DNA of 32,000 nt from Massilicoli timonensis (GCF_900199515.1 NZ_LT963434.1:1173272-1205271), one strand, 5' to 3'. Positions 12,962 through 32,000 are shown, counted from the first letter of the stretch. Translations and numbers: made by a program. The notes: generated by a model not told the origin, from the sequence alone.

Positions 12962-13263
12962 TATGCCTCACCCATCAATTTCAAAGCCTGATGCAAGGTC
13001 TTTTTTCCATCCATCATGCCATAAGCAACCATTTCAATCACATCAAGGGGACATGCGATATATTGTTTCAGATCTTCCTTGCGATAGGCAACCTGTGGAC
13101 CAAGCAGCACACAGTCCGCATCTTTTGCCACTGTCGCAGCCGCATCCACAGAATAAGCCGCAATATCAAATTCCTTACCGATTTCTTTCGCATAGGATTT
13201 CATATTATTTACCAAAATGCTGGTGGACATGCCGCCTGCGCAAAGCAGTACGATTTTTTTCAT
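12961..13263 (-). CDS. PTS lactose/cellobiose-family EIIB component
   Basis: The track start 13302 is probably too long. MKKIVLLCAGGMSTSILV (active-site Cys) starts at 13263, 1 nt after the IIC stop. Confidence 0.85.
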   Translation of the reverse strand: MKKIVLLCAGGMSTSILVNNMKSYAKEIGKEFDIAAYSVDAAATVAKDADCVLLGPQVAYRKEDLKQYIACPLDVIEMVAYGMMDGKKTLHQALKLMGEA

Positions 13264-13264
13264 A

Positions 13265-14521
13265 TTAGTTTTCCTCCTTTGCTGTCTCTTCTGCACATGC
13301 AAATTTATCTTCTCTTTTCATAAACGGAATATAAATGATATAACAAATCACTAATTGAACAAGCTGTGCGATGATTCCCTGCCAGCCGTTTGTAAAGAAT
13401 CCGCCGATGATGACCGGGAAGCCGGTAGGTAAGGTTACTCCGTTTGTATATGGCAAAAAGCCAATAATGGTAAGCAGATAAGCGCTCAATACCGAGGCGG
13501 CCGGTGTCAGGACCAAAGGAATAAGCATACGGATATTCATTACTTGCGGAATACCGAATTTGATCGGTTCACTGATACCGAATAATGCCGGAATCAACCC
13601 CAATTTGCCGGTTGCCTTTAATCGTTCCGATTTACAAGTAAATAAACAATGGAGCGCAACCGCTAAAGATCGGGCACCGCGATTTCCAAGGACAAAACCG
13701 AATGTAAATAAATACGGCAGTGTTTCTTTGGCATTGTATGCCGATAAGTTCGCCATCTGCGGTTCCATCCAAAGCATCATCATGATCGGCATCATGGTAA
13801 TAACACCGTGCATCCCAAAAAACCACAACAATTCAATAAAAGCCACTACCAGCATAGCCGAGAAGATATTATTTCCCAAGTGCATAAACGGCGTCTGGAT
13901 AAAAGTCATCAACATATTGGTTACTGTACCATACGGCGTGAGGCTCATGATCACATTGATGGTCGCAAAAATGACGGCTACCAAACATCCCGGTATAATT
14001 GCGGCGAACGAACTTGCCACAAACGGGGGCACAGAATCAGGCATCTTGATCGTAAACTTATGATCCGTTGCCCAAATATAAAGCCGTGCCGCAAGCAAAG
14101 AGCCAAACAATGCGGTGAAAATACCACTGCTGCCGAAATTACTGATATTGATAAATGTTCCATCTTCTAATACGGAAATCGGGCATAAGATCAGGAAAGA
14201 CATGATTCCCATAATACCGCAGTTCAGTGCATCTTTTTTCATGATATCGCCTAGTTTATAAGCTACTAAGAACGATACATACACTGAAATCGCATCAATC
14301 GTCATTGTAGAGATGACATTACAAACACTTAAAATTCCTGTGCTTCTCAAAATCGCCTGTGAAGAACCGATGTCAATCGCTGCGATCAGCGTGGCAACAG
14401 AGCTGATCATCATCAATGCCATTGTTGCCATCATGCCTTGAGATAACGCCTTCATATAAATATTATTTGAAAATGCTGTAGAAAATTTACCCAGCGCATC
14501 GCGCAATTTATCAAACTTCAT
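13265..14521 (-). CDS. PTS cellobiose-family EIIC permease
   Basis: 418 aa polytopic membrane protein in IIC-IIB-IIA order. Several + strand ORFs (13560-14063, 13808-14170) are antisense shadows. Confidence 0.85.
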   Translation of the reverse strand: MKFDKLRDALGKFSTAFSNNIYMKALSQGMMATMALMMISSVATLIAAIDIGSSQAILRSTGILSVCNVISTMTIDAISVYVSFLVAYKLGDIMKKDALNCGIMGIMSFLILCPISVLEDGTFINISNFGSSGIFTALFGSLLAARLYIWATDHKFTIKMPDSVPPFVASSFAAIIPGCLVAVIFATINVIMSLTPYGTVTNMLMTFIQTPFMHLGNNIFSAMLVVAFIELLWFFGMHGVITMMPIMMMLWMEPQMANLSAYNAKETLPYLFTFGFVLGNRGARSLAVALHCLFTCKSERLKATGKLGLIPALFGISEPIKFGIPQVMNIRMLIPLVLTPAASVLSAYLLTIIGFLPYTNGVTLPTGFPVIIGGFFTNGWQGIIAQLVQLVICYIIYIPFMKREDKFACAEETAKEEN

Positions 14522-14537
14522 AAAAATGTTCCTTTCC

Positions 14538-15320
14538 CTATTGTAAATAATTTTCTCTTATTTTAGTTACTTCTTCTATCGTGAGTCCTAATTCTCGGAT
14601 CACGTAGTTTTCAATACCGTTAAATTGTTCTTCAATCAAATTCAACGCGGCCAATAAAAATTCCTTGCGGGCTTCTTTCAGGTATCGTAATGCCAGTACA
14701 AAATCTTTATTTCCGGTCTTATCATAAACTTCTTTCAAGCTTCGCTCATTTTTCTCTTTTTTATATACGTTGGTCAATAGATAATCTTTGAGCACCGTTT
14801 CTTGATCTACGCCAAGCAGCAGTAAGATCAAAGCAGCACCATAACCGGTACGATCTTTCCCGCCTCGACAATGCTGGACCAATGGACAATTCCCTGTATC
14901 CAGCAGCAGTTTCAATAGTTTACGATAACTGCTCTTGGATGTTTCTGCTAAAACAAATTCTTCATTTTGCCGGTACATGAGCGAATACGCCTGTTTTGAA
15001 GAAATCATCGAACGGTTTTTTTCTAAAATGTCTTTATTTTCGCTGCTGGCTAACGCCGCCACATCAGCTTTCGGATCCAGATAAATGATCGTGCTGCCTT
15101 CGATCGGCACATCTTCATTATCGATCCGTTCCCGCTTCGCACGGTAATCAACGATTGTTTTAATGCCTATTTTCTCCAAAAGAGCAACATCACTTTCGCT
15201 TAGTTTGCTCAGTTCATCAGAACGATATAGAAGACCGGTTTTCACCGTTTTCCCATCCTTTGTCCGATAGCCGCCGATATCGCGAAAGTTATAGGCTCCT
15301 TCCAATTTTATTTTTTCCAT
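14538..15320 (-). CDS. Tyrosine-protein-phosphatase-like protein (CX5R P-loop, Y_phosphatase3-type)
   Basis: 260 aa. NFRDIGGY is near the N-terminus and the catalytic loop is VQHCRGGKDRTG. It sits 14 nt after the PRD regulator and 16 nt before EIIC. Confidence 0.8.
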   Translation of the reverse strand: MEKIKLEGAYNFRDIGGYRTKDGKTVKTGLLYRSDELSKLSESDVALLEKIGIKTIVDYRAKRERIDNEDVPIEGSTIIYLDPKADVAALASSENKDILEKNRSMISSKQAYSLMYRQNEEFVLAETSKSSYRKLLKLLLDTGNCPLVQHCRGGKDRTGYGAALILLLLGVDQETVLKDYLLTNVYKKEKNERSLKEVYDKTGNKDFVLALRYLKEARKEFLLAALNLIEEQFNGIENYVIRELGLTIEEVTKIRENYLQ

Positions 15321-15334
15321 AATTCACCTGCTTT

Positions 15335-17260
15335 TTAATAAGATGCTTTGATCAGTTCATTGATAAATGTTTCATAATCCGGCTGATCGATCATACGATA
15401 TAATACTTCTTGATTTAATAGCATTTTAATGATTCTTTCATATAAGAATACATACTTTTCACTGGATACCTTGCTCATGGAAATCAATAAGATCAAACGA
15501 ACTTTTTGATTTCCCCAATCAATCGATTTCTTTAAGAATGAAACTGAGACAAAGGTAAAATCCGTACAGCTCTCTATCGGATGGGGCAATGCCACATCAG
15601 GCAACAGATCCGTTGTAAACAGTTCCTCTCTTTTTAATACCAACTCCTTAAAATGCTTTGGCAGTTTTACATTTTCGCCCACTCGATCAATGATCCGATC
15701 CAAAGCTTCTTCTTTATCTTTTACATCTAAATTCGTAAAAAATAGACTCGGTCTGAAATATGCGATGGCATCTGATTTTTGAATTTCCTCCGATAATATG
15801 GATTGAATCCTTTTAACGGTTCTTTCATTCAGAAAGAAAGAAAATTCAAAAACGGGAATAGAAGTATCCACATTCAGCGGTACCGTAGTGAAAATGTAAT
15901 CTATTGCATGGTTTTGTAAATAACGCTCTATTTGATTGACATCACAAATATCTGCTTTCTCTATATATTGCTGGAAGTATTGCTGGAAATTGTAAAATAT
16001 CATCTGCGAGGTCGCTCTCCCACTTCCACATACGATCAGTATTTTTTTCTTGCGAATATTTTGGATTTCTTTTTTCAATGCGACATTGAAGTGCAAGGCA
16101 AAATAACTGATCTCTTGTTCCGACAGTTCAAAACCCCACTCGTCTTTTATCACCTCTGCCGCGATCAAAGACAACTCGTACCCGCTTACACATTGTGTTT
16201 TGATCTGTTCACAAATTGGATTCTTTAACACGACATCGTGTTCCAGCCGAAATTTTAGCGGTAACAGATGCAAGCCCAGCATGATGCGCAAATTAAAATC
16301 ATCTAATAAATCAATGCCGATAATATCTCGTATCGTAATTAAGATTTTTTCAACTAGTTGATTGATCGCTTCCGGGATTTGTTGGTTATGTTTTTGATCC
16401 AATTCACGTTTCGATAGGATCTGTAATAAAATATATTCTCTTTCTGAAGCACTGAACGTGATCGCAAATTCATTCTCTAAACAATCAATCAGCTCATCTG
16501 CCAAATCATTCATATTAGAAGATACTTTCTGTTGTCCCAGTGAATAGTCAATTTCTTTCCCTTCCATAATTCTTTTTACACTGATATAGAGGTGTGAGGA
16601 TAATGCTTCTTGTAAATAATCCGGCATGCTGTATTTTTGATCTTCAAAGACCTTTTCAATAATCTGCTTGATCTTGCAGTATGCTTTATCTGACTTACTG
16701 AAATAATAGAAATTATCTTCTACCAGTCTTTGCACATAGTTGCTTGAAATAAATCTCCTCAAATCAAATTCTTCGCCGATGATTCTGATGCCGTAGTGAG
16801 GCTTCATTTGAATTTTCAAATTGTAATTTGCTAAAATATGTCTGATTTTTTTTAATATTTTAGTCAATGTCGATTTAGAGATAAAGAATTCTTCTGTCAA
16901 ATCATCTGACTTTAAGTAGCCGTTTTCTGTGACCAGCCGAGAGAGTATCTGATCTACCAGTTGTTCTTCCGTATAGGGAACATTCGACAACAGCTGATCA
17001 AACAACTGTTGATCTTCAATCACCAGCAAGTAACCGAAACCATGTTTCACTGCAATCTTGGCGCCATAAGATGTCAGTTCATCCTCTAAACAACGAATAC
17101 GGTGTTGAATTGTTTTGGTACTTTTGTCTAATAAAGTTGCAATTTTATTGCCGGACACATAAGCATCGCTCTCCATTAAAATTTTCAAAATTTGATAATC
17201 AATCTTCTCTATCATTTCCTCACCACCTACAGTATAACGAGCGTTGTATTCTTTTTCCAA
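15335..17260 (-). CDS. PRD-domain transcriptional regulator of the LicR/CelR/MtlR type (HTH + PRDs + EIIB-like + EIIA-like)
   Basis: 641 aa. An N-terminal HTH region is followed by long helical PRD-like repeats, an EIIB-like KKILIVCGSGRATSQM and a C-terminal EIIA-like part. The alternative start at 17215 (MIEKIDYQ) has a GGTGGTGAGG RBS and may be the true start. Confidence 0.8.
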   Translation of the reverse strand: MEKEYNARYTVGGEEMIEKIDYQILKILMESDAYVSGNKIATLLDKSTKTIQHRIRCLEDELTSYGAKIAVKHGFGYLLVIEDQQLFDQLLSNVPYTEEQLVDQILSRLVTENGYLKSDDLTEEFFISKSTLTKILKKIRHILANYNLKIQMKPHYGIRIIGEEFDLRRFISSNYVQRLVEDNFYYFSKSDKAYCKIKQIIEKVFEDQKYSMPDYLQEALSSHLYISVKRIMEGKEIDYSLGQQKVSSNMNDLADELIDCLENEFAITFSASEREYILLQILSKRELDQKHNQQIPEAINQLVEKILITIRDIIGIDLLDDFNLRIMLGLHLLPLKFRLEHDVVLKNPICEQIKTQCVSGYELSLIAAEVIKDEWGFELSEQEISYFALHFNVALKKEIQNIRKKKILIVCGSGRATSQMIFYNFQQYFQQYIEKADICDVNQIERYLQNHAIDYIFTTVPLNVDTSIPVFEFSFFLNERTVKRIQSILSEEIQKSDAIAYFRPSLFFTNLDVKDKEEALDRIIDRVGENVKLPKHFKELVLKREELFTTDLLPDVALPHPIESCTDFTFVSVSFLKKSIDWGNQKVRLILLISMSKVSSEKYVFLYERIIKMLLNQEVLYRMIDQPDYETFINELIKASY

Positions 17261-26037: not shown

Positions 26038-27369
26038 TTATTTTCCTAAGCAGAAATTGGAGAACAGCGCGTCTAACAGATCTTCTCGATGCACTTCACC
26101 CAGAATTTCTTTTAATGCCGAATAGGCTTCCTGTATGTCGATCGCCACCAGATCCAGCTCCATGCCCGCTTCCATTGCCGTGATTGCCTGCGTCATTGCC
26201 TGCTGCGCTTTCATCATCAAGGCGATCTGGCGATCATTGGCTAAGGAAGGCTCCTTCAATACGATCAGATGCTCGTCATAGCGACGGTGGATCTCTTTGA
26301 TCAGCGCATCGATCTCGCCGTTCGCCGCACTGATCCAGATGCCTTCTTTGGAAGGCGCTTGGCTGATGTCCTTTTTATTATAAACGATGATGCGGTTTTT
26401 ATCGGCAGTCTTTTCCAATAATTCCTGATCCTGCTGATCTGCTTCTTTACTGCCGTCCAGCACCACGATCACCAACTGTGCTTCTTCGATCGCTTTCAGT
26501 GAACGCGCAATGCCGATTTTCTCAACGGTATCCTGTGTTTCCCGAATTCCGGCAGTGTCGATCAAATGCAAAGTAAATGCGCCTAAGTGAATGCTTCCTT
26601 CCACGATGTCCCGTGTAGTACCGGCAATATCGGTTACAATGGCTTTTTCTTCTTCCAACAAAGCATTCAAAAGACTGCTTTTCCCAACATTCGCCTGTCC
26701 GACGATCGCCGTGGAAATCCCTTCTTTTACGATCTTTCCGCTATTGGCGCGCGCTAAGATTGCATTGATCTTCTGCGCCCAGTCTCTTGCCTTCGGCAAC
26801 AACACCTCATTGGTTAATTGTTCGACATCATCATATTCCGGATAGTCGATGTTCACTTCAATATGTGCAATGATGTCCAACAGCTCTTCTAAAAAAGGAT
26901 CCAGCAGTTTTTTGATGCTGCCGCGGATTCCCTGCACCGCAAGCTTTGCTTCCGATGCGCCTTCGGCAGCGATCATATCATTGATGGCCTCTGCTTGGGT
27001 AAGATCGATCCTGCCGTTCAAAAAAGCGCGCTGGGTAAATTCACCGCGTGTCGCCAATCTCGCTCCATTTGCCAATAAAAGCCGCAATATTTTTCTGGTG
27101 ATGTAAATACCGCCATGGCAGTTGATCTCCACCATATCCTCTCTGGTAAATGTCTTAGGGGCGCGAAATACCGATATCAGCACTTCATCTAGCACTTCTT
27201 CGCTTTGTGGATCTTTGATATAGCCATAGTGAATGGTATGACTTGGCGCATCATGCAAAGAGCAGGTGCATAGCGTATCTGCAATGGCAATCGCATCTTC
27301 TCCGCTCATACGCACGATGGAAATGGCTCCTTGATCAAGTGCTGTTGAAATCGCAGCTATCGTATCCAT
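26038..27369 (-). CDS. mnmE: tRNA modification GTPase MnmE (TrmE)
   Basis: 443 aa. G1 is GQANVGKSSLLNAL and G3 is DTAGIR. The C-terminal FCLGK (CxGK) motif is present. Confidence 0.92.
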   Translation of the reverse strand: MDTIAAISTALDQGAISIVRMSGEDAIAIADTLCTCSLHDAPSHTIHYGYIKDPQSEEVLDEVLISVFRAPKTFTREDMVEINCHGGIYITRKILRLLLANGARLATRGEFTQRAFLNGRIDLTQAEAINDMIAAEGASEAKLAVQGIRGSIKKLLDPFLEELLDIIAHIEVNIDYPEYDDVEQLTNEVLLPKARDWAQKINAILARANSGKIVKEGISTAIVGQANVGKSSLLNALLEEEKAIVTDIAGTTRDIVEGSIHLGAFTLHLIDTAGIRETQDTVEKIGIARSLKAIEEAQLVIVVLDGSKEADQQDQELLEKTADKNRIIVYNKKDISQAPSKEGIWISAANGEIDALIKEIHRRYDEHLIVLKEPSLANDRQIALMMKAQQAMTQAITAMEAGMELDLVAIDIQEAYSALKEILGEVHREDLLDALFSNFCLGK

Positions 27370-27774: not shown

Positions 27775-28578
27775 CTAGGAGGGCTGTATTTTTAATTGAC
27801 ACCATAACAGATTATGATCGGAAAAGGAGCTTTGCAGCGTTCCCTTGTCTAACAAGGTAAAATGATCGGCATAGAAAATGTTGTCTGGGAAACCGAAATC
27901 ACGGAATGTAAGCAACGGTGCAGCGGCATTATTGATCTGTTCATAGCCGTCAATGGTAAAAAAATCATCGGCGGTGAATGTATTGAAGTCCCCCATGAGG
28001 ATCGTGTTACGCTCATTTTGCAGTTCCTCTTTTAAGTAGTCGATCTGCTCCCATCTGACGTCGCGTTCTTTATAACTTAAATGAGTGAGATAAACAGAAA
28101 GGATTTCTTCGCCTGCCTGAATCTTTGCGCCGGCAAGAATACGCGGCTCCTTTAACAGTTCATTAGGCAAAGAATGAGAAGATACGGAAAGGATCGGATA
28201 ACGGCTCAAAATGCCCAACCCATAATAACCGTCCACCATCCACATCGTTTCGTAAAAGTAATAATAAGGATAGTCAGCGGCAGCGGCTAATTCTTTTACC
28301 ATTTCCATCTCATTTGAACGAAAAGCGCTCTCATCCACTTCCTGCAATACTAAAATATCAGCCTGCGCCGTTTTTAGATCTTGTACGCACGCATGCAGAT
28401 CTTCTCCCTGGTTCAGCGTCTTGATGTTATAGGTGGCAATCTTTATTGTTTCAGGCGTTTTGATGTTTTCCTTATTGCCTAATTCGCGATTATAATTGCG
28501 GCTGTTGTGGCGCCACAAGGCAAAAACGCCGATCGCTGCTATAACAATCAGAATGCCGATCACTACTTTTCGTTTCAC
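27775..28578 (-). CDS. Endonuclease/exonuclease/phosphatase (EEP) family protein with N-terminal membrane anchor or signal
   Basis: 267 aa. The N-terminal hydrophobic helix is VVIGILIVIAAIGVFALW. EEP blocks are IATYNIK, LVLQEVD, MGDFN and SDHNLLW. It ends in TAG. Confidence 0.8.
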   Translation of the reverse strand: MKRKVVIGILIVIAAIGVFALWRHNSRNYNRELGNKENIKTPETIKIATYNIKTLNQGEDLHACVQDLKTAQADILVLQEVDESAFRSNEMEMVKELAAAADYPYYYFYETMWMVDGYYGLGILSRYPILSVSSHSLPNELLKEPRILAGAKIQAGEEILSVYLTHLSYKERDVRWEQIDYLKEELQNERNTILMGDFNTFTADDFFTIDGYEQINNAAAPLLTFRDFGFPDNIFYADHFTLLDKGTLQSSFSDHNLLWCQLKIQPS

Positions 28579-28657
28579 ACTGCCACCTCACTTTCCTGTT
28601 TTTCTTATTTTAACACGTTCCATTTGCACATAATAGTTGCAAAGCATAAATTTTTGA

Positions 28658-28686
28658 TTGATTTTTTTAATGATGCGCGTTACAAT
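28658..28686 (+). promoter_or_regulatory. Candidate promoter of tRNA-Thr
   Basis: TTGATT (28658-28663), a 17-nt spacer, then TACAAT (28681-28686), about 17 nt upstream of the mature tRNA 5' end. Confidence 0.5.
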
Positions 28687-28703
28687 AAGAAGGCAAAGAA
28701 AAT

Positions 28704-28779
28704 GCCGACTTAGCACAGTTGGTAGTGCAACGCACTCGTAACGCGTAGGTCGTAGGTTCAAGTCCTATAGTCGGCACCA
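28704..28779 (+). tRNA. tRNA-Thr (anticodon CGU), CCA encoded
   Basis: Manual fold. Acceptor is GCCGACT/AGTCGGC. D arm is GCAC-AGTTGGTA-GTGC. The anticodon arm is ACGCA-CTCGTAA-CGCGT (one A.C mismatch) with CGT at positions 34-36. The T arm is GTAGG-TTCAAGT-CCTAT, with a 3' ACCA tail. Confidence 0.9.
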
Positions 28780-28791
28780 TTTAATATATAG

Positions 28792-28818
28792 CACCTCTCA
28801 TTTTGAGGGGTGTTTTTT
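28792..28818 (+). terminator. Rho-independent terminator after tRNA-Thr
   Basis: 8-bp stem CACCTCTC / GAGGGGTG (one G.U pair), loop ATTTT, then TTTTTT (28813-28818). Confidence 0.8.
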
Positions 28819-28917
28819 AGTTTATATATATTTTTTTAATTTTGAACAAAATCATAAATATTTCCAACAAATATAGCAAGAAGTTGCGATATTTTATTAT
28901 AAAAGCAATTGAACATA

Positions 28918-28946
28918 TTGAAAAAACGGCTTTGTAATAATATAAT
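28918..28946 (+). promoter_or_regulatory. Near-consensus sigma-A promoter of the island cassette
   Basis: TTGAAA (28918-28923), a 17-nt spacer, then TATAAT (28941-28946). An imperfect palindrome TAATAATATAATTA overlaps the -10. The HTH gene ATG is at 28979 behind AAGAGGTAGAG. Confidence 0.6.
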
Positions 28947-28978
28947 TAAACTGTATTTTTAAGATAAGAGGTAGAGAA

Positions 28979-29188
28979 ATGAAAATCAGTTATAAAAAAC
29001 TATGGATATTGCTTATTGAAAAAGAAATTTCTCCAGTATCATTAAGAGCTGATTTAAATATCGCAACTGGTACAATGACTAAGTTGAGAAGAAATGAAGA
29101 AGTCGCACTATCTGTATTATTGCGTATCTGCGGTTATTTAGATTGTAATATTGGAGATATATGCGATGCTATTAAAACTGAAGAATAA
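28979..29188 (+). CDS. Small XRE/Cro-type helix-turn-helix transcriptional regulator
   Basis: 69 aa. MKISYKKLWILLIEKEISPVSLRADLNIATGTMTKLRRNEEVALSVLLRICGYLDCNIGDICD matches the common ~70-aa HTH family (KLW.LL..K......L....GI...T..KL...E.VS..VL.KIC..L.C.I.DI). Confidence 0.8.
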   Translation: MKISYKKLWILLIEKEISPVSLRADLNIATGTMTKLRRNEEVALSVLLRICGYLDCNIGDICDAIKTEE

Positions 29189-29211
29189 AATATACAAAGG
29201 AGGATAAATGA

Positions 29212-29863
29212 ATGAAGGTTTGCATGAATTGCGGAAAAGAATTAAATGAAGATGATAAATTTTGTTCTAATTGTGGAAAATCAACTTTAGATGACAATAG
29301 CAAACGGAAAACAGTTTATGAAGGTGAAATACATAAATGCCCAAATTGTGGTAACACGATAAATGCCTATGAAATGGTGTGTACAACTTGTGGGCATGAA
29401 ATCAGAGGAAGACAAATTACAAGTCAAGTACATAAGTTATCATTAAAATTAGAAAACACTAATAATGTGCAAAAAAAAAGAAGAATTAATTCGAACTTTT
29501 TATATTCCAAATACTAAAGAAGAAATTTATGAATTTTTTATTCTTGCAAGTTCAAATATTAAAATTGGCGGTATGAATACAAATGCATGGATGGTTAAAA
29601 TTGAACAAGCATATCAAAAGGCAGAATTATCTTTTGGAAATACCAGTGAATTTGAACGTTTGAAATCAATGTATGTTCAAATAAAAAAAATGAATAAGAA
29701 AAACTATGCATTCAATTTTTTTAAATCAAAATATGCGTGGGCGTTAATCTTTTTTATCATAGGAATTTTCTTTTTTTTAGTATACTCAGCATCTAATAAT
29801 GAAAACATTGGTGTTATTAGTCTTATGTTTATTGTTATAGCAGCGGGGGTAGCAATTGAGTGA
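29212..29863 (+). pseudogene. Double zinc-ribbon protein with two C-terminal TM helices, split into two track ORFs by a frameshift in an A9 tract
   Basis: ORF 29212-29517 carries CMNCGKELNEDDKFCSNCG and CPNCGNTINAYEMVCTTCG. ORF 29465-29863 (the +1 frame) continues with KKEELIRTFYIPNTKEEIYEFFILASSNI... and ends in two hydrophobic helices (WALIFFIIGIFFFLVY; IGVISLMFIVIAAGVAI). Removing one A from 29471-29479 joins them as ...NNVQKKEELIRTFYIPNTKEE... into one 216-aa protein. Confidence 0.7.
29471..29479 (+). repeat. A9 homopolymer at the frameshift point
   Basis: gtgc-AAAAAAAAA-gaag. A length of 8 or 11 would be in frame. Confidence 0.95.
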
Positions 29864-29922
29864 TAAAAAATAGAAAATATTAAAGTTATAAAAGACATTA
29901 GACATAGAATGGAGGATATATT

Positions 29923-31251
29923 ATGTCAATATTCAATAGGAAAAATAAAACTGGAGGATTTATGGATGAAATTAGATGTGATGAAAAGTCATATTTAATA
30001 TGGAAATGGCATCCATCTGGAAAAGAGTTAGGAGAAGGAAATAGAGAAAATGCTATTAGATATGGTTCATCGTTACGAGTAAAAGATGGTGAAGTTGCTG
30101 TATTTGTTTATAAACAAAAAGATGAAACTATGCAAGAGTTTATTGAAGGACCATATGATGAAATCATCAAAACAAATAACTTTCCTATCCTTGCAAGTAT
30201 TGTGGGCTTAGCATACGAGGGGGGAACTCCTTTCCAAGCAGAAATTTACTTTATAAATCTTGCTCGTATTATCCAAGTAAAATTTGGTGTTCCATTTTTT
30301 GATGTATATGATCCTAGATTTATGGATTTTGGTGTCCCAACTGCTGTTAGAGGAACTATAAGTTTCAAGATTAACGATTACAGAGAATTTATTAAATTAC
30401 ATCGACTTAATACTTTTAATTTAGATGATTTTCAAAGAGAAATTAGAGATGCGGTTTGTCGTTATGTTAAAGATATCGTAGCAAATGCACCAGCTCAAAA
30501 TAATATTCCTTTAGTTCAAATTGAAACAAAAACTTCTCAAATAAATGATGTTGTAGAATTACATATTGAAGAAAGATTGAATGAAGATTTTGGTGTGACA
30601 GTATCTGGAGTAGACATATCTGCAATTGAACTAGATAAATCAAGTGATGGATTTAAACAATTAATGAGTGTAACGAAAGATATTGATATTGTTAAAGTAC
30701 AAGCACAAACAGAAGATTATGTTGAAAGACTTCGTATTCAAAGAGAAGAAGGTCAATATGCACAACATAAACAAACTCAAACTGCTAATATTGGGGCTTT
30801 CCAAGTCGAAAAACAGGCAGAAGTTGGTGTTGCTGGTGCTGAAGCATTAGGTCAAATGGGAACTAATGAAGCAGGAGATATTAATTTAGGTGATAATGGA
30901 GATGGATTTAATATGGCAGCAATGATGGCCAGTATGGCTGTTGGAGGTGCTGTTGGACAAAATATTGCAGGTTCAATAAGTAATATGATGTCTGGAATAA
31001 ACCAGCCTAACCAAATCGGAATAACACCACCACCTTTACCTACTGTAATGTATTATGTTGCAGTAAACGGCGAAGCAACTGGTCCTTTTGATTTAAATAC
31101 ATTATCTCAAATGATTGTGCAAGGAACATTGACTAAAGATACTCTTGTTTGGAAGCAAGGAATGGATAATTGGGATAGAGCAGGAAATATTATTGAAATA
31201 TTATCTTTATTTAATGTTAATAACGTTCCTCCACTTCCAGAGAAATTTTAG
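29923..31251 (+). CDS. SPFH-domain protein of the YdjI / COG4260 (Band_7_1, 'virion core protein-like') type with a C-terminal GYF_2-type domain
   Basis: 442 aa with GGAGG at 29909-29913. The N-terminus MSIFNRKNKTGGFMDEIRCDEKSYLIWKWHP...GSSLRVKDGEVAVFV...FQAEIYFINL follows the YdjI-family pattern. It continues with a charged helical stretch (RLRIQREEGQYAQHKQ), a G/A/M-rich linker, then MYYVAVNGEATGPFDLNTLSQMIVQGTLTKDTLVWKQGMDNWDRAGNI (GYF_2/DUF4339 pattern). Confidence 0.8.
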   Translation: MSIFNRKNKTGGFMDEIRCDEKSYLIWKWHPSGKELGEGNRENAIRYGSSLRVKDGEVAVFVYKQKDETMQEFIEGPYDEIIKTNNFPILASIVGLAYEGGTPFQAEIYFINLARIIQVKFGVPFFDVYDPRFMDFGVPTAVRGTISFKINDYREFIKLHRLNTFNLDDFQREIRDAVCRYVKDIVANAPAQNNIPLVQIETKTSQINDVVELHIEERLNEDFGVTVSGVDISAIELDKSSDGFKQLMSVTKDIDIVKVQAQTEDYVERLRIQREEGQYAQHKQTQTANIGAFQVEKQAEVGVAGAEALGQMGTNEAGDINLGDNGDGFNMAAMMASMAVGGAVGQNIAGSISNMMSGINQPNQIGITPPPLPTVMYYVAVNGEATGPFDLNTLSQMIVQGTLTKDTLVWKQGMDNWDRAGNIIEILSLFNVNNVPPLPEKF

Positions 31252-31446
31252 ATGGAGAGCAAAATCATGAGTAATTGGAAAAGTATAAAAAATTTCAGTA
31301 GAGATATTATTGAAGAAGTAAGAGAAAGAAATAGGCAAAGATTTAATGATGCTCAAATAGAAATTCAGATAGAAGATATAAAGAAAATAGTTTATGTATT
31401 GAAAGAACTTGATATAGAAAACGATAAGATCATTCGAATTTTGTAG
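31252..31446 (+). CDS. Small hypothetical protein directly abutting the SPFH gene; possibly truncated by TAG (open frame continues to 31503)
   Basis: The ATG at 31252 directly follows the SPFH stop codon (31249-31251). The 64 aa are charged and helical. After TAG (31444-31446) the same frame reads KHWDLRLSEAEYFLNNME then TAA. Confidence 0.45.
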   Translation: MESKIMSNWKSIKNFSRDIIEEVRERNRQRFNDAQIEIQIEDIKKIVYVLKELDIENDKIIRIL

Positions 31447-31536
31447 AAGCATTGGGATTTAAGATTAAGTGAAGCTGAATACTTTTTAAATAATATGGAA
31501 TAAAACGAACGGTTTAGCTAGTTAGGAGGTGTTTTT

Positions 31537-31683
31537 ATGGAAGAAAAATTAAACAAAAATATTCTCTCATCTTCTCACATTAATTTTTTGTTCGGTGTGG
31601 GTGTGAATAGAAGTGCATTCCCTCAACTTAAAGGATTTATTAAAACTATAATGTTATTTTATTTGGGAATAGGGGGATTTTAA
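31537..31683 (+). pseudogene. 48-codon stub resembling the N-terminus of SIR2_2/DUF4917-type Rossmann-like defence proteins (probable deletion remnant)
   Basis: Not in the track because it is under 60 aa. AGGAGGTG at 31524-31531, ATG at 31537. The product is MEEKLNKNILSSSHINFLFGVGVNRSAFPQLKGF, followed by the unrelated hydrophobic tail IKTIMLFYLGIGGF and a stop. The hydrophobic strand plus F-G-x-G-x-N loop resembles the FLGAGxS start of such proteins. This is a weak, pattern-level call. Confidence 0.25.
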
Positions 31684-31715
31684 ATGAATCAAAAGATGAG
31701 AAAGAGGATGATTAA

Positions 31716-32000
31716 ATGAGTGCAGAGCAAGAATATTACATTAGTTTAATAGAAAGGCTATGTCATTTTTCTAACGAAACAGAGTGGTTAGAATTTAAAG
31801 TCAACAATGATGAACCATCTCTAATTGGCGAATATGTTTCTGCGTTAAGCAATTCTGCTACTATATGCGAAAAAGAAAAAGCATATATGATTTGGGGGAT
31901 TGATGATAGCACTCATGAAATCGTTGGTACTAGTTTTAGTCCGAAACAGACGAAAATTGGTAACGAAGAATTAGAAAATTGGCTATTAAGAGCATTAAAG
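31716..32000 (+). CDS. AlbA_2 (Schlafen-like, 'divergent AAA / putative DNA-binding') domain ATP-binding protein, N-terminal part only
   Basis: Not in the track because it runs off the edge. ATG at 31716 gives MSAEQEYYISLIERLCHFSNETEWLEFKVNNDEPSLIGEYVSALSNSATICEKEKAYMIWGIDDSTHEIVGTSFSPKQTKIGNEELENWLLRALK. The E.LEFK.....IGEY.SALSNSA....AY.IWG.DD.TH..VGT pattern is typical of AlbA_2 N-termini. Confidence 0.7.
   Translation, partial: MSAEQEYYISLIERLCHFSNETEWLEFKVNNDEPSLIGEYVSALSNSATICEKEKAYMIWGIDDSTHEIVGTSFSPKQTKIGNEELENWLLRALK

Follow-up and report, generated by a model that had tools for sequence, protein, structure and literature searches.

The genes that follow a tRNA gene near the end of a 32,000-nucleotide stretch of Massilicoli timonensis DNA (GCF_900199515.1, NZ_LT963434.1:1173272-1205271; the window) raise the question of whether a small operon of membrane-associated proteins serves maintenance of the cell envelope or defence. 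The operon, here called the cassette, encodes a helix-turn-helix (HTH) regulator of the HTH_26 family, a membrane protein with two zinc ribbons and transmembrane (TM) helices, termed ZnR-TM, and a soluble protein that combines an SPFH domain with a GYF domain, termed SPFH-GYF. The module is PspA-free, mobile, membrane-associated, unnamed and interchangeable with a defence pair. Our tentative reading, with a probability of about 0.45, is that the locus preserves, in degenerate form, a portable and self-regulated membrane module of three genes that is common on the integrative mobilizable elements (IMEs) and integrative conjugative elements (ICEs) of gut Firmicutes and acts in anti-phage or anti-invader membrane surveillance.

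The SPFH-GYF protein (29923-31251, +; 442 amino acids) was delineated from Pfam profiles, alignments and an AlphaFold2 (AF2) model, which is of the monomer only. Its Band_7_1 domain (nucleotides 30046-30639, residues 42-239; PF13421, 4e-23, 82.5 bits versus a cutoff of 24) is followed on the same strand by a helix of 70 residues in the AF2 model (30646-30864), a conserved Gly/Ala/Met-rich segment modeled with low confidence (30904-30996), a first polyproline motif (31024-31041), the GYF_2 domain (nucleotides 31051-31197, residues 377-425; PF14237, 1e-18, 67.1 bits versus a cutoff of 25.8) and a C-terminal polyproline motif (31225-31248). The SPFH and GYF domains are both modeled confidently, and TM prediction found no TM segment in the protein. 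Foldseek places the SPFH domain and helix with stomatin, flotillin, HflK/C, prohibitin, QmcA and the major vault protein, with top matches to the SPFH part of 7e-9 to 1e-5, and the C terminus with the GYF domains of GltJ, GIGYF1 and Smy2. The order of YdjI-type SPFH domain, helix, Gly/Ala/Met-rich linker and GYF_2 domain, proposed in an earlier note made from the sequence alone, is thus upheld by Pfam, AF2 and Foldseek. In the alignments, G387, P388, W410, G413 and W417 of the GYF domain are invariant or nearly so. Conservation down to 31% identity is also seen in the supposed linker, which carries the motif NPAxMMxGMxxGGAVG, and in the flanking polyproline residues P369, P436 and P439, which are nearly invariant.

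The partner gene directly upstream (29212-29863, +; ORF2) is frameshifted, with open reading frames (ORFs) at 29212-29517 and 29465-29863. The +1 frameshift lies at a run of nine adenines (A9, 29471-29479), and a version with eight (A8) would encode an intact protein of 216 amino acids. The two ribbons, each of the form CxxC-11-CxxC, match the Pfam profiles Zn_Ribbon_1 (1.5e-13) and DZR (8e-10). The AF2 model of the A8-repaired protein (pLDDT 86.9) contains the ribbons, a conserved four-helix domain, a long helix and two TM helices (173-194 and 197-215), in agreement with the two ribbons, helical middle and two TM helices read earlier from the sequence. A PDB fold search with the helical domain gave nothing significant (best E 0.4). 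The repaired protein is colinear with intact homologues of 230-250 amino acids at 57-66% identity, through a nearly invariant Lys-Lys-Glu-Leu stretch. ZnR-TM relatives have one to five TM helices and variable C-terminal ectodomains, 26 of 106 with DUF6591, and ~20 loci carry an extra downstream gene that combines one zinc ribbon, TM helices and DUF6591. Many homologues of ~320 amino acids (P0292, P0332, P0340-P0384) have a C-terminal region annotated as DnaJ_C (PF01556) past the TM helices, a surprising domain at an extracytoplasmic position. Matches of the zinc-ribbon protein to TcaA and LmuB were set aside as noise from the ribbons alone.

The first gene (28979-29188, +) encodes an HTH_26 regulator of the XRE/Cro-C1 type with 69 amino acids (PF13443, 1.5e-16; 60.8 bits versus a gathering cutoff of 22). 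Its best NCBIfam match is VanU (NF000090) at 66.8 bits, with the equivalog cutoff of 150 not reached. Ahead of the gene stands the σ70-type promoter that the earlier note had pointed out, TTGAAA-17-TATAAT (-35 at 28918-28923, -10 at 28941-28946, +), which matches 11 of 12 consensus positions and is the top-scoring promoter-like site of 28500-32000. A minus-strand promoter-like sequence, TTTTCA-17-TATAAT (28896-28924, 10/12), overlaps its -35 region and is directed away from the cassette, with no obvious gene between it and the tRNA. Four same-strand ORFs, the fourth being a small accessory one described below, follow the cassette promoter with gaps of 23, 59 and 0 nucleotides. A terminator-like hairpin behind the tRNA gene (28790-28814, +) shields the cassette from transcription entering upstream, and no other plus-strand hairpin of this kind occurs inside the cassette or up to 32000; the single transcription unit described earlier fits this layout.

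Upstream of the promoter lies the palindrome TAGCAA-GAAG-TTGCGA (28874-28889, without strand; candidate HTH_26 target DNA, TCGCAAGAAGTTGCGA), the sole match in the 32-kb window and the proposed HTH_26 operator. Across 62 aligned regions upstream of the HTH gene, three features are shared: a TTGAC(A) -35 element, a TATAAT -10 element and, ~30 nucleotides farther upstream, the palindrome, with the family consensus TCGCAA-N4-TTGCGA (spacer GAAG or CTTC). Scans allowing one mismatch at most found it within 200 nucleotides upstream of the HTH gene in 47 of 64 HTH-bearing GTDB loci, in 70 of 78 metagenome loci and in none of 10 HTH-less loci, and ~0.3 matches are expected by chance. Elsewhere in 1.29 Mb there are 33 matches, all with other spacers and all but three intragenic. 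This conservation makes the palindrome a candidate operator of the HTH_26 protein. Since its center lies ~72 nucleotides upstream of the predicted transcription start, both activation and repression are possible. In four loci of S. sanguinis or S. gordonii (L041, L045, L047 and L049, ~13997-14503, -), a protein with an XRE-HTH fused to TM helices is encoded ~2.6 kb downstream on the opposite strand; its cluster is found in 13 loci, and it could be an alternative regulator of HTH-less versions of the cassette.

The arrangement recurs far beyond this species. SPFH-GYF relatives number >8000 at 90% clustering, and the 120 best, from different classes of Firmicutes at 74-100% identity, all share the two-domain architecture. 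With one genome scanned per species, 172 relatives came to light; the 80 loci kept for counting, to which all counts out of 80 refer, include Clostridia, Erysipelotrichia, Streptococcus sanguinis and gordonii, and Gardnerella. When the window proteins were compared with these loci by tblastn, SPFH-GYF was found in 80/80 (65-79% identity), the zinc-ribbon/TM protein in 78/80, often as two tandem copies (25-57% identity), and the HTH protein on the same strand upstream in 64/80 (78-90% identity to the window protein), which bears out the conserved HTH and ZnR-TM neighbors that the earlier note had envisaged. The trio keeps order and strand in 64-78 of the 80 loci, and the layout is therefore beyond chance. 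All-versus-all clustering of ~1700 ORFs gave three conserved clusters only, any other being present in at most 15/80 loci. In clades at 38-43% identity, a gene with ribbon and TM helices still stands directly upstream of SPFH-GYF, in unrelated operons with DUF6175 and without the HTH gene. Judged from these sequences, the ZnR-TM/SPFH-GYF pairing is the ancient core of the module. Two such distant loci (L105:3383-9612 and L107:172-3860) hold, besides SPFH-GYF and DUF6175, several Pfam-less proteins and a single-ribbon TM protein directly upstream.

The strongest, though indirect, argument for an immune module comes from a reciprocal test seeded from the HTH protein, with homologues of 81-90% identity on metagenome contigs. 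Among 66 evaluable loci, 54 carry ZnR-TM and SPFH-GYF downstream. The other 12 lack the cassette and all retain the palindrome and promoter; in 11 of these 12, hence 11 of the 66, a 482-residue BnzB homologue (PADLOC, 4e-102) is encoded together with a 378-residue glycine-zipper membrane protein (PDC-M09A, 3e-69). This Bunzi-related pair is seen at L159:5220-7779 and also on L136, L144, L155, L158, L161, L165, L166, L169, L173 and L177. The flanks are shared as well: contig L132, with the cassette, matches both sides of the pair on L159, and the 2.4 kb downstream on L111, likewise with the cassette, match L173 at 96%, so that cargo has been replaced within one element family. Bunzi is a validated anti-phage system with a proposed role in membrane surveillance (bioRxiv 10.1101/2022.05.11.491447). 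Because the same head and slot alternatively hold a Bunzi-related pair, an anti-phage or anti-invader role of the cassette is favored, and searches with the HTH/palindrome head might reveal exchangeable cargo slots more generally.

The genomic setting is that of mobile DNA. In 59 of 72 loci the AT content of the cassette exceeds that of its flanks, and on annotated contigs the cassette sits in the cargo regions of IMEs or ICEs. IMEs at the 3' end of guaA run from integrase through HTH_3, primase, NikA, relaxase and, in some, TnpV to the cassette and then to cargo such as AbiGi/AbiGii or a combination of ThsB-TIR, DUF1016/YhcG and ToxN. L093:3799-21326 has two related IMEs in tandem at guaA. 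Both contain an integrase, NikA, AAA_25 or PrimPol, a relaxase and TnpV, and the cassette, with AbiGi/AbiGii behind it, is in the first. ICEs have the order resolvase, cassette, DUF6591 lipoprotein and type IV secretion system (T4SS) genes, with Dnd, type I restriction-modification (RM) or AlbA_2/AAA cargo exchanged upstream. In a Faecalicoccus-type ICE seen on L083-L087, cassette and resolvase are identical and the segment just upstream of the resolvase gene, which lies at L083:6879-7514, is variable, with AlbA_2, DUF6414 and AAA_2, or DndE, AAA_23 and a cysteine desulfurase, or the type I RM subunit HsdR; it looks like a cargo-exchange hotspot. Small serine-recombinase elements beside serS have the cassette as their main cargo. 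Common neighbors in the 80 loci are a rumA-like methyltransferase gene (12 loci), TnpV, recombinases, relaxases, ParB and primases. The rumA-like methyltransferase gene is a known target of mobile genetic elements (MGEs).

The mobile, variable-island setting proposed before thus holds across the loci, which are AT-rich and at MGE integration sites, and the local islet itself is without mobility genes. The absence of a PspA partner also holds: tblastn with a B. subtilis PspA probe not drawn from a database found none in the window and none across 100 related loci (1.59 Mb), and the Pfam counts of neighbors contain no PspA, Lia or TPM family; the annotated contigs likewise show no TPM protein around the cassette. 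The cassette is accordingly not confined to core positions beside pspA or lia, which were not found, and its neighborhoods vary. A phage-borne gene or superinfection exclusion was considered and rejected, with one unverified record among 50,697 phage records and three of 2.9 million IMG/VR contigs, as was a plasmid-borne one, plasmids having yielded distant SPFH proteins only (19-30% identity). The sole phage record with a full cassette, unannotated there, is L104 (MT835670.1, 'UNVERIFIED Bacteriophage sp.', 13225-15881), which may be a misclassified integrative element. What operationally marks a defence island or MGE hotspot is present: a variable neighborhood, MGE linkage and interchange with a defence system at one locus.

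A mechanism can be outlined from these architectures. The HTH_26 protein would bind TCGCAA-N4-TTGCGA upstream of the near-consensus promoter and set operon expression, likely with a surge when the element enters a naive cell and autoregulation afterwards. The partner would hold its two zinc ribbons and helical domain on the cytoplasmic face and pass through the membrane with one to five helices, many relatives also exposing a variable ectodomain, often DUF6591; it would anchor the TM-less SPFH-GYF protein and is probably the sensor. SPFH-GYF may form a ring or cage beneath the membrane, as do stomatin, flotillin or HflK/C. Because proline-rich peptides are ligands of GYF domains (PMC2034487) and polyproline motifs flank the GYF domain on both sides, the domain and its two motifs could provide a self-binding latch or cross-link. 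The assembly would monitor or stabilize the membrane under attack.

Several observations weigh against immunity. No cassette protein matches PADLOC, including its candidate families derived from defence islands, and no toxic or enzymatic effector is recognizable in the cassette. In PADLOC-DB v2, the HTH protein, SPFH-GYF and the small accessory ORF have no match and the zinc-ribbon protein has noise-level ones only; the earlier statement that no named defence system has this composition is consistent with that search. Defence-type genes do stand nearby, as had been supposed, and their enrichment is modest among the immediate neighbors, roughly 6-9% of the two nearest downstream neighbors matching defence models (PtuA/LmuB-type ATPases, PDC-S22, PDC-S01, methyltransferases and AbiD). 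SPFH-GYF and HTH are unusually conserved for immune proteins, small elements of a kind that usually bears resistance genes can have the cassette as their main cargo, and in some element families the cassette is constant while the adjoining defence cargo swaps. A position of the palindrome so far upstream of the start is unusual for a simple autorepressor. In S. sanguinis and S. gordonii the pair stands without the HTH gene between mutS and mutL, a region into which S. pyogenes chromosomal islands integrate. Finally, the closest characterized relative, YdjI (SamI), serves envelope-stress homeostasis.

The last point leads to the main rival, a serious one that we nevertheless consider unlikely on balance: the cassette would be envelope-stress or antimicrobial-tolerance cargo, a PspA-independent analogue of SamGHI (YdjGHI) that stabilizes the membrane against bile, bacteriocins, lipopeptide- or glycopeptide-type agents or conjugation stress, as a mobile fitness or resistance trait rather than immunity. 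YdjI and the Band_7_1 domain are homologous (22% identity over 208 amino acids, E 2e-9, with a YdjI sequence not drawn from a database), and in YdjG-YdjI, too, a zinc-ribbon membrane protein is paired with a soluble SPFH protein (PMC11237479). The age of this pairing, which is also found outside the MGE clade, the strong purifying selection on SPFH-GYF, the role of main cargo in small serine-recombinase/TnpV elements, the resemblance of the HTH protein to VanU, and the lack of both a toxic effector and a PADLOC match all speak for tolerance. On the other side, no pspA, lia or TPM gene is close by, the VanU likeness is far under the family cutoff, the membrane partner is duplicated and fast-diversifying, Abi, TIR, ToxN, RM or Dnd genes are often direct neighbors, and the Bunzi-related pair can take the place of the cassette behind the same regulator and in the same slot. 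An element-centered function appears improbable, in which the cassette would serve entry or surface exclusion, establishment after transfer or control of adjoining cargo, with ZnR-TM variants fitted to different transfer machineries. Its adjacency to relaxase/TnpV modules or T4SS genes, its constancy beside changing cargo, and a strong promoter with a tiny first-gene regulator, suited to expression on entry, are what such a function would predict; it accords poorly with the occurrence of the cassette on four or more unrelated backbones and on T4SS-lacking IMEs, with its presence where all mobility genes are missing, here and in Streptococcus, and with distant clades that hold the ZnR-TM/SPFH-GYF pair in operons not resembling MGEs.

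A rival reading of the local allele, in which the A9 tract is a phase-variation switch or a site of programmed slippage tuning the amount of membrane anchor, is likewise improbable. The tract lies within a conserved Lys-Lys codon pair, an independent frameshift at this tract is seen in a Streptococcus genome (L077), which has A5 instead of the in-frame A6, and runs of ~9 A are known to provoke RNA-polymerase slippage. The site is not conserved as a shift, however: just 2 of ~80 species are frameshifted, and 65 intact homologues read through in one frame with A3-A6 at the tract, one with an in-frame A8. Phase variation was rejected as the main reading on the grounds that A9 is identical in the independent metagenome contigs L001, L101 and L102, without length polymorphism, and a collection of 5.8 billion proteins contains no intact allele from M. 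timonensis, only the split form (P0285). An unrelated nonsense mutation in the neighboring small ORF also argues against regulation. We therefore read the A9 frameshift as slippage-prone mutational decay and not a conserved programmed shift, and leaky expression of ORF2 by transcriptional slippage at the tract is possible.

That small ORF, ORF4 (83 codons; 31252-31446, or to 31503 if its TAG is read through, +), abuts the SPFH-GYF gene, and gene callers put its start at 31267. An in-frame TAG stands at 31444-31446. The sole homologue among the 80 loci, on L022, occupies the same position after SPFH-GYF with 35% identity across the stop, and has Gln at that codon; the likeness persists past the stop (KHWDLRLSEAE versus KHWNLRLSEAE). 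The Gln in the homologue indicates a nonsense mutation, and read-through or recoding was rejected. ORF4 has no family match in Pfam, NCBIfam, PADLOC or PHROGs. Its earlier inclusion as a member of the system is not sustained, as it is present in two species only, this one and that of L022, and carries a nonsense codon here. With the frameshift in ORF2, the nonsense codon in ORF4 and an islet without mobility genes, the local copy is likely non-functional; it is probably a decaying remnant, inactive or merely leaky.

The islet begins at the tRNA-Thr(CGU) gene (28704-28779, +; ARAGORN), directly past which GC falls from ~43% to ~30%, as the earlier note had remarked of the AT-rich DNA beside a tRNA. 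To the left lie core genes, an Exo_endo_phos family gene (27775-28578, -) and mnmE (26038-27369, -), in a flank 99.96% identical to metagenome contig L001, and the islet junction is hence stable in the species. On L101 the low-GC islet spans ~4.7 kb and ends at ~33,550 in window numbering, before TMEM164-like, addB and addA genes; no integrase or mobility genes were found in it. A tRNA-derived direct repeat as its end was sought and discarded, none of at least 11 nucleotides being present. Downstream of ORF4, an ORF of 48 amino acids with unverified identity (31537-31683, +) has no match in Pfam, NCBIfam, PADLOC or PHROGs, and its former label of SIR2-like stub is unverifiable. Outside the cassette, the neighboring cargo gene of the AlbA_2 (Schlafen-like) and HATPase_c_4 type is in the window with its 5' part (31716-32000, +). 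The AlbA_2 ATPase proposed earlier is confirmed by the longer contig L001 and, like it, by L101, where the full gene encodes 486 amino acids with PF04326 and PF13749. A PDC-S50 match to it is weak (1.7e-4).

SPFH proteins are universal membrane scaffolds whose bacterial roles are poorly understood, and the cassette joins conserved parts to an exchangeable sensor, with 172 species-level relatives and thousands of metagenomic protein clusters, moved between phyla by mobile elements. It is possible, though on the doubtful side, that it represents a new and widespread anti-phage or anti-invader family of gut Firmicutes, the first built on an SPFH cage protein. In that case fast-evolving ZnR-TM sensors would perceive an assault on the membrane and set off or free an SPFH-GYF assembly restrained by a GYF-polyproline latch, under an HTH_26/palindrome head that also drives Bunzi-like systems and would thus mark exchangeable defence slots of a new class on IMEs and ICEs. 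If immune, the module would be a mechanistically new membrane-surveillance system and would help to find out what Band_7_1/YdjI-type SPFH proteins sense; if it confers envelope tolerance, it would be a mobile resistance determinant of the gut microbiota, directed at membrane-active agents. In either case the HTH_26/palindrome head is a practical key to further cargo slots, and the GYF-polyproline arrangement offers an assembly mechanism open to direct testing.

The two domains of the SPFH-GYF protein are the same as those of an SPFH/Band 7 plus GYF architecture listed by Balaji and Aravind in 2007, without operon, partner, regulator, mobility or function (PMC2034487). A search of the published literature, which also covered SPFH proteins in anti-phage contexts, found no functional description of proteins combining SPFH and GYF domains (Band_7_1/COG4260 with GYF_2). 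Similar to stomatin, flotillin, HflK/C, prohibitin and QmcA, the cassette protein has an SPFH fold followed by a long helix. It differs from the cage-forming SPFH proteins in lacking an N-terminal membrane anchor and an NfeD or FtsH partner in its operon, and in its C-terminal GYF domain. The regulator resembles VanU of the vanG operon as a single-domain HTH protein of ~70 amino acids encoded by the operon's first gene, whereas the cargo is unrelated and the score of 66.8 bits compares with the 150 needed for that family. Bunzi and PDC-M09 share with the cassette a two-gene membrane-associated module and, in one element family, the slot, the HTH_26 gene, the palindrome, the promoter and the flanks. 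The cassette proteins have no sequence similarity to BnzA, BnzB or PDC-M09, and the link is positional and regulatory only; the window contains neither a BnzA nor a BnzB homologue, the latter occurring only as alternative cargo in related elements.

In B. subtilis, the soluble Band-7 protein YdjI ends in a C-terminal zinc ribbon, YdjG joins two ribbons to an NTF2-like domain and a TM segment, and YdjH carries a TPM domain; YdjG together with YdjH brings YdjI and PspA to the membrane (PMC8581546, PMC11237479, bioRxiv 10.64898/2026.02.06.704340). The YdjG and YdjI sequences used for comparison were not drawn from a database, and their ends agree with published primers (PMC8581546). The cassette is like YdjGHI (SamGHI) in that a soluble Band_7_1 SPFH protein is encoded beside a membrane protein with two N-terminal zinc ribbons, and in each of the two SPFH proteins the helix is followed by a Gly/Met-rich stretch of low complexity. 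The main differences are that the cassette lacks pspA and a YdjH/TPM protein, that GYF and its flanking polyproline motifs take the place of the C-terminal zinc ribbon of YdjI, and that a helical bundle is predicted in the partner instead of the NTF2-like middle of YdjG. In addition, YdjGHI is under σW control, in contrast to HTH_26 and the palindrome in the cassette, and the cassette is on mobile elements. When ORF2 is compared with YdjG, the ribbons alone align. The earlier description of a reduced YdjGHI therefore stands as an analogy and not as orthology, only the ribbons being common to YdjG and the middle being all-helical. By this analogy, the cassette plausibly works like YdjG-YdjI, with a membrane protein that recruits a soluble SPFH protein.

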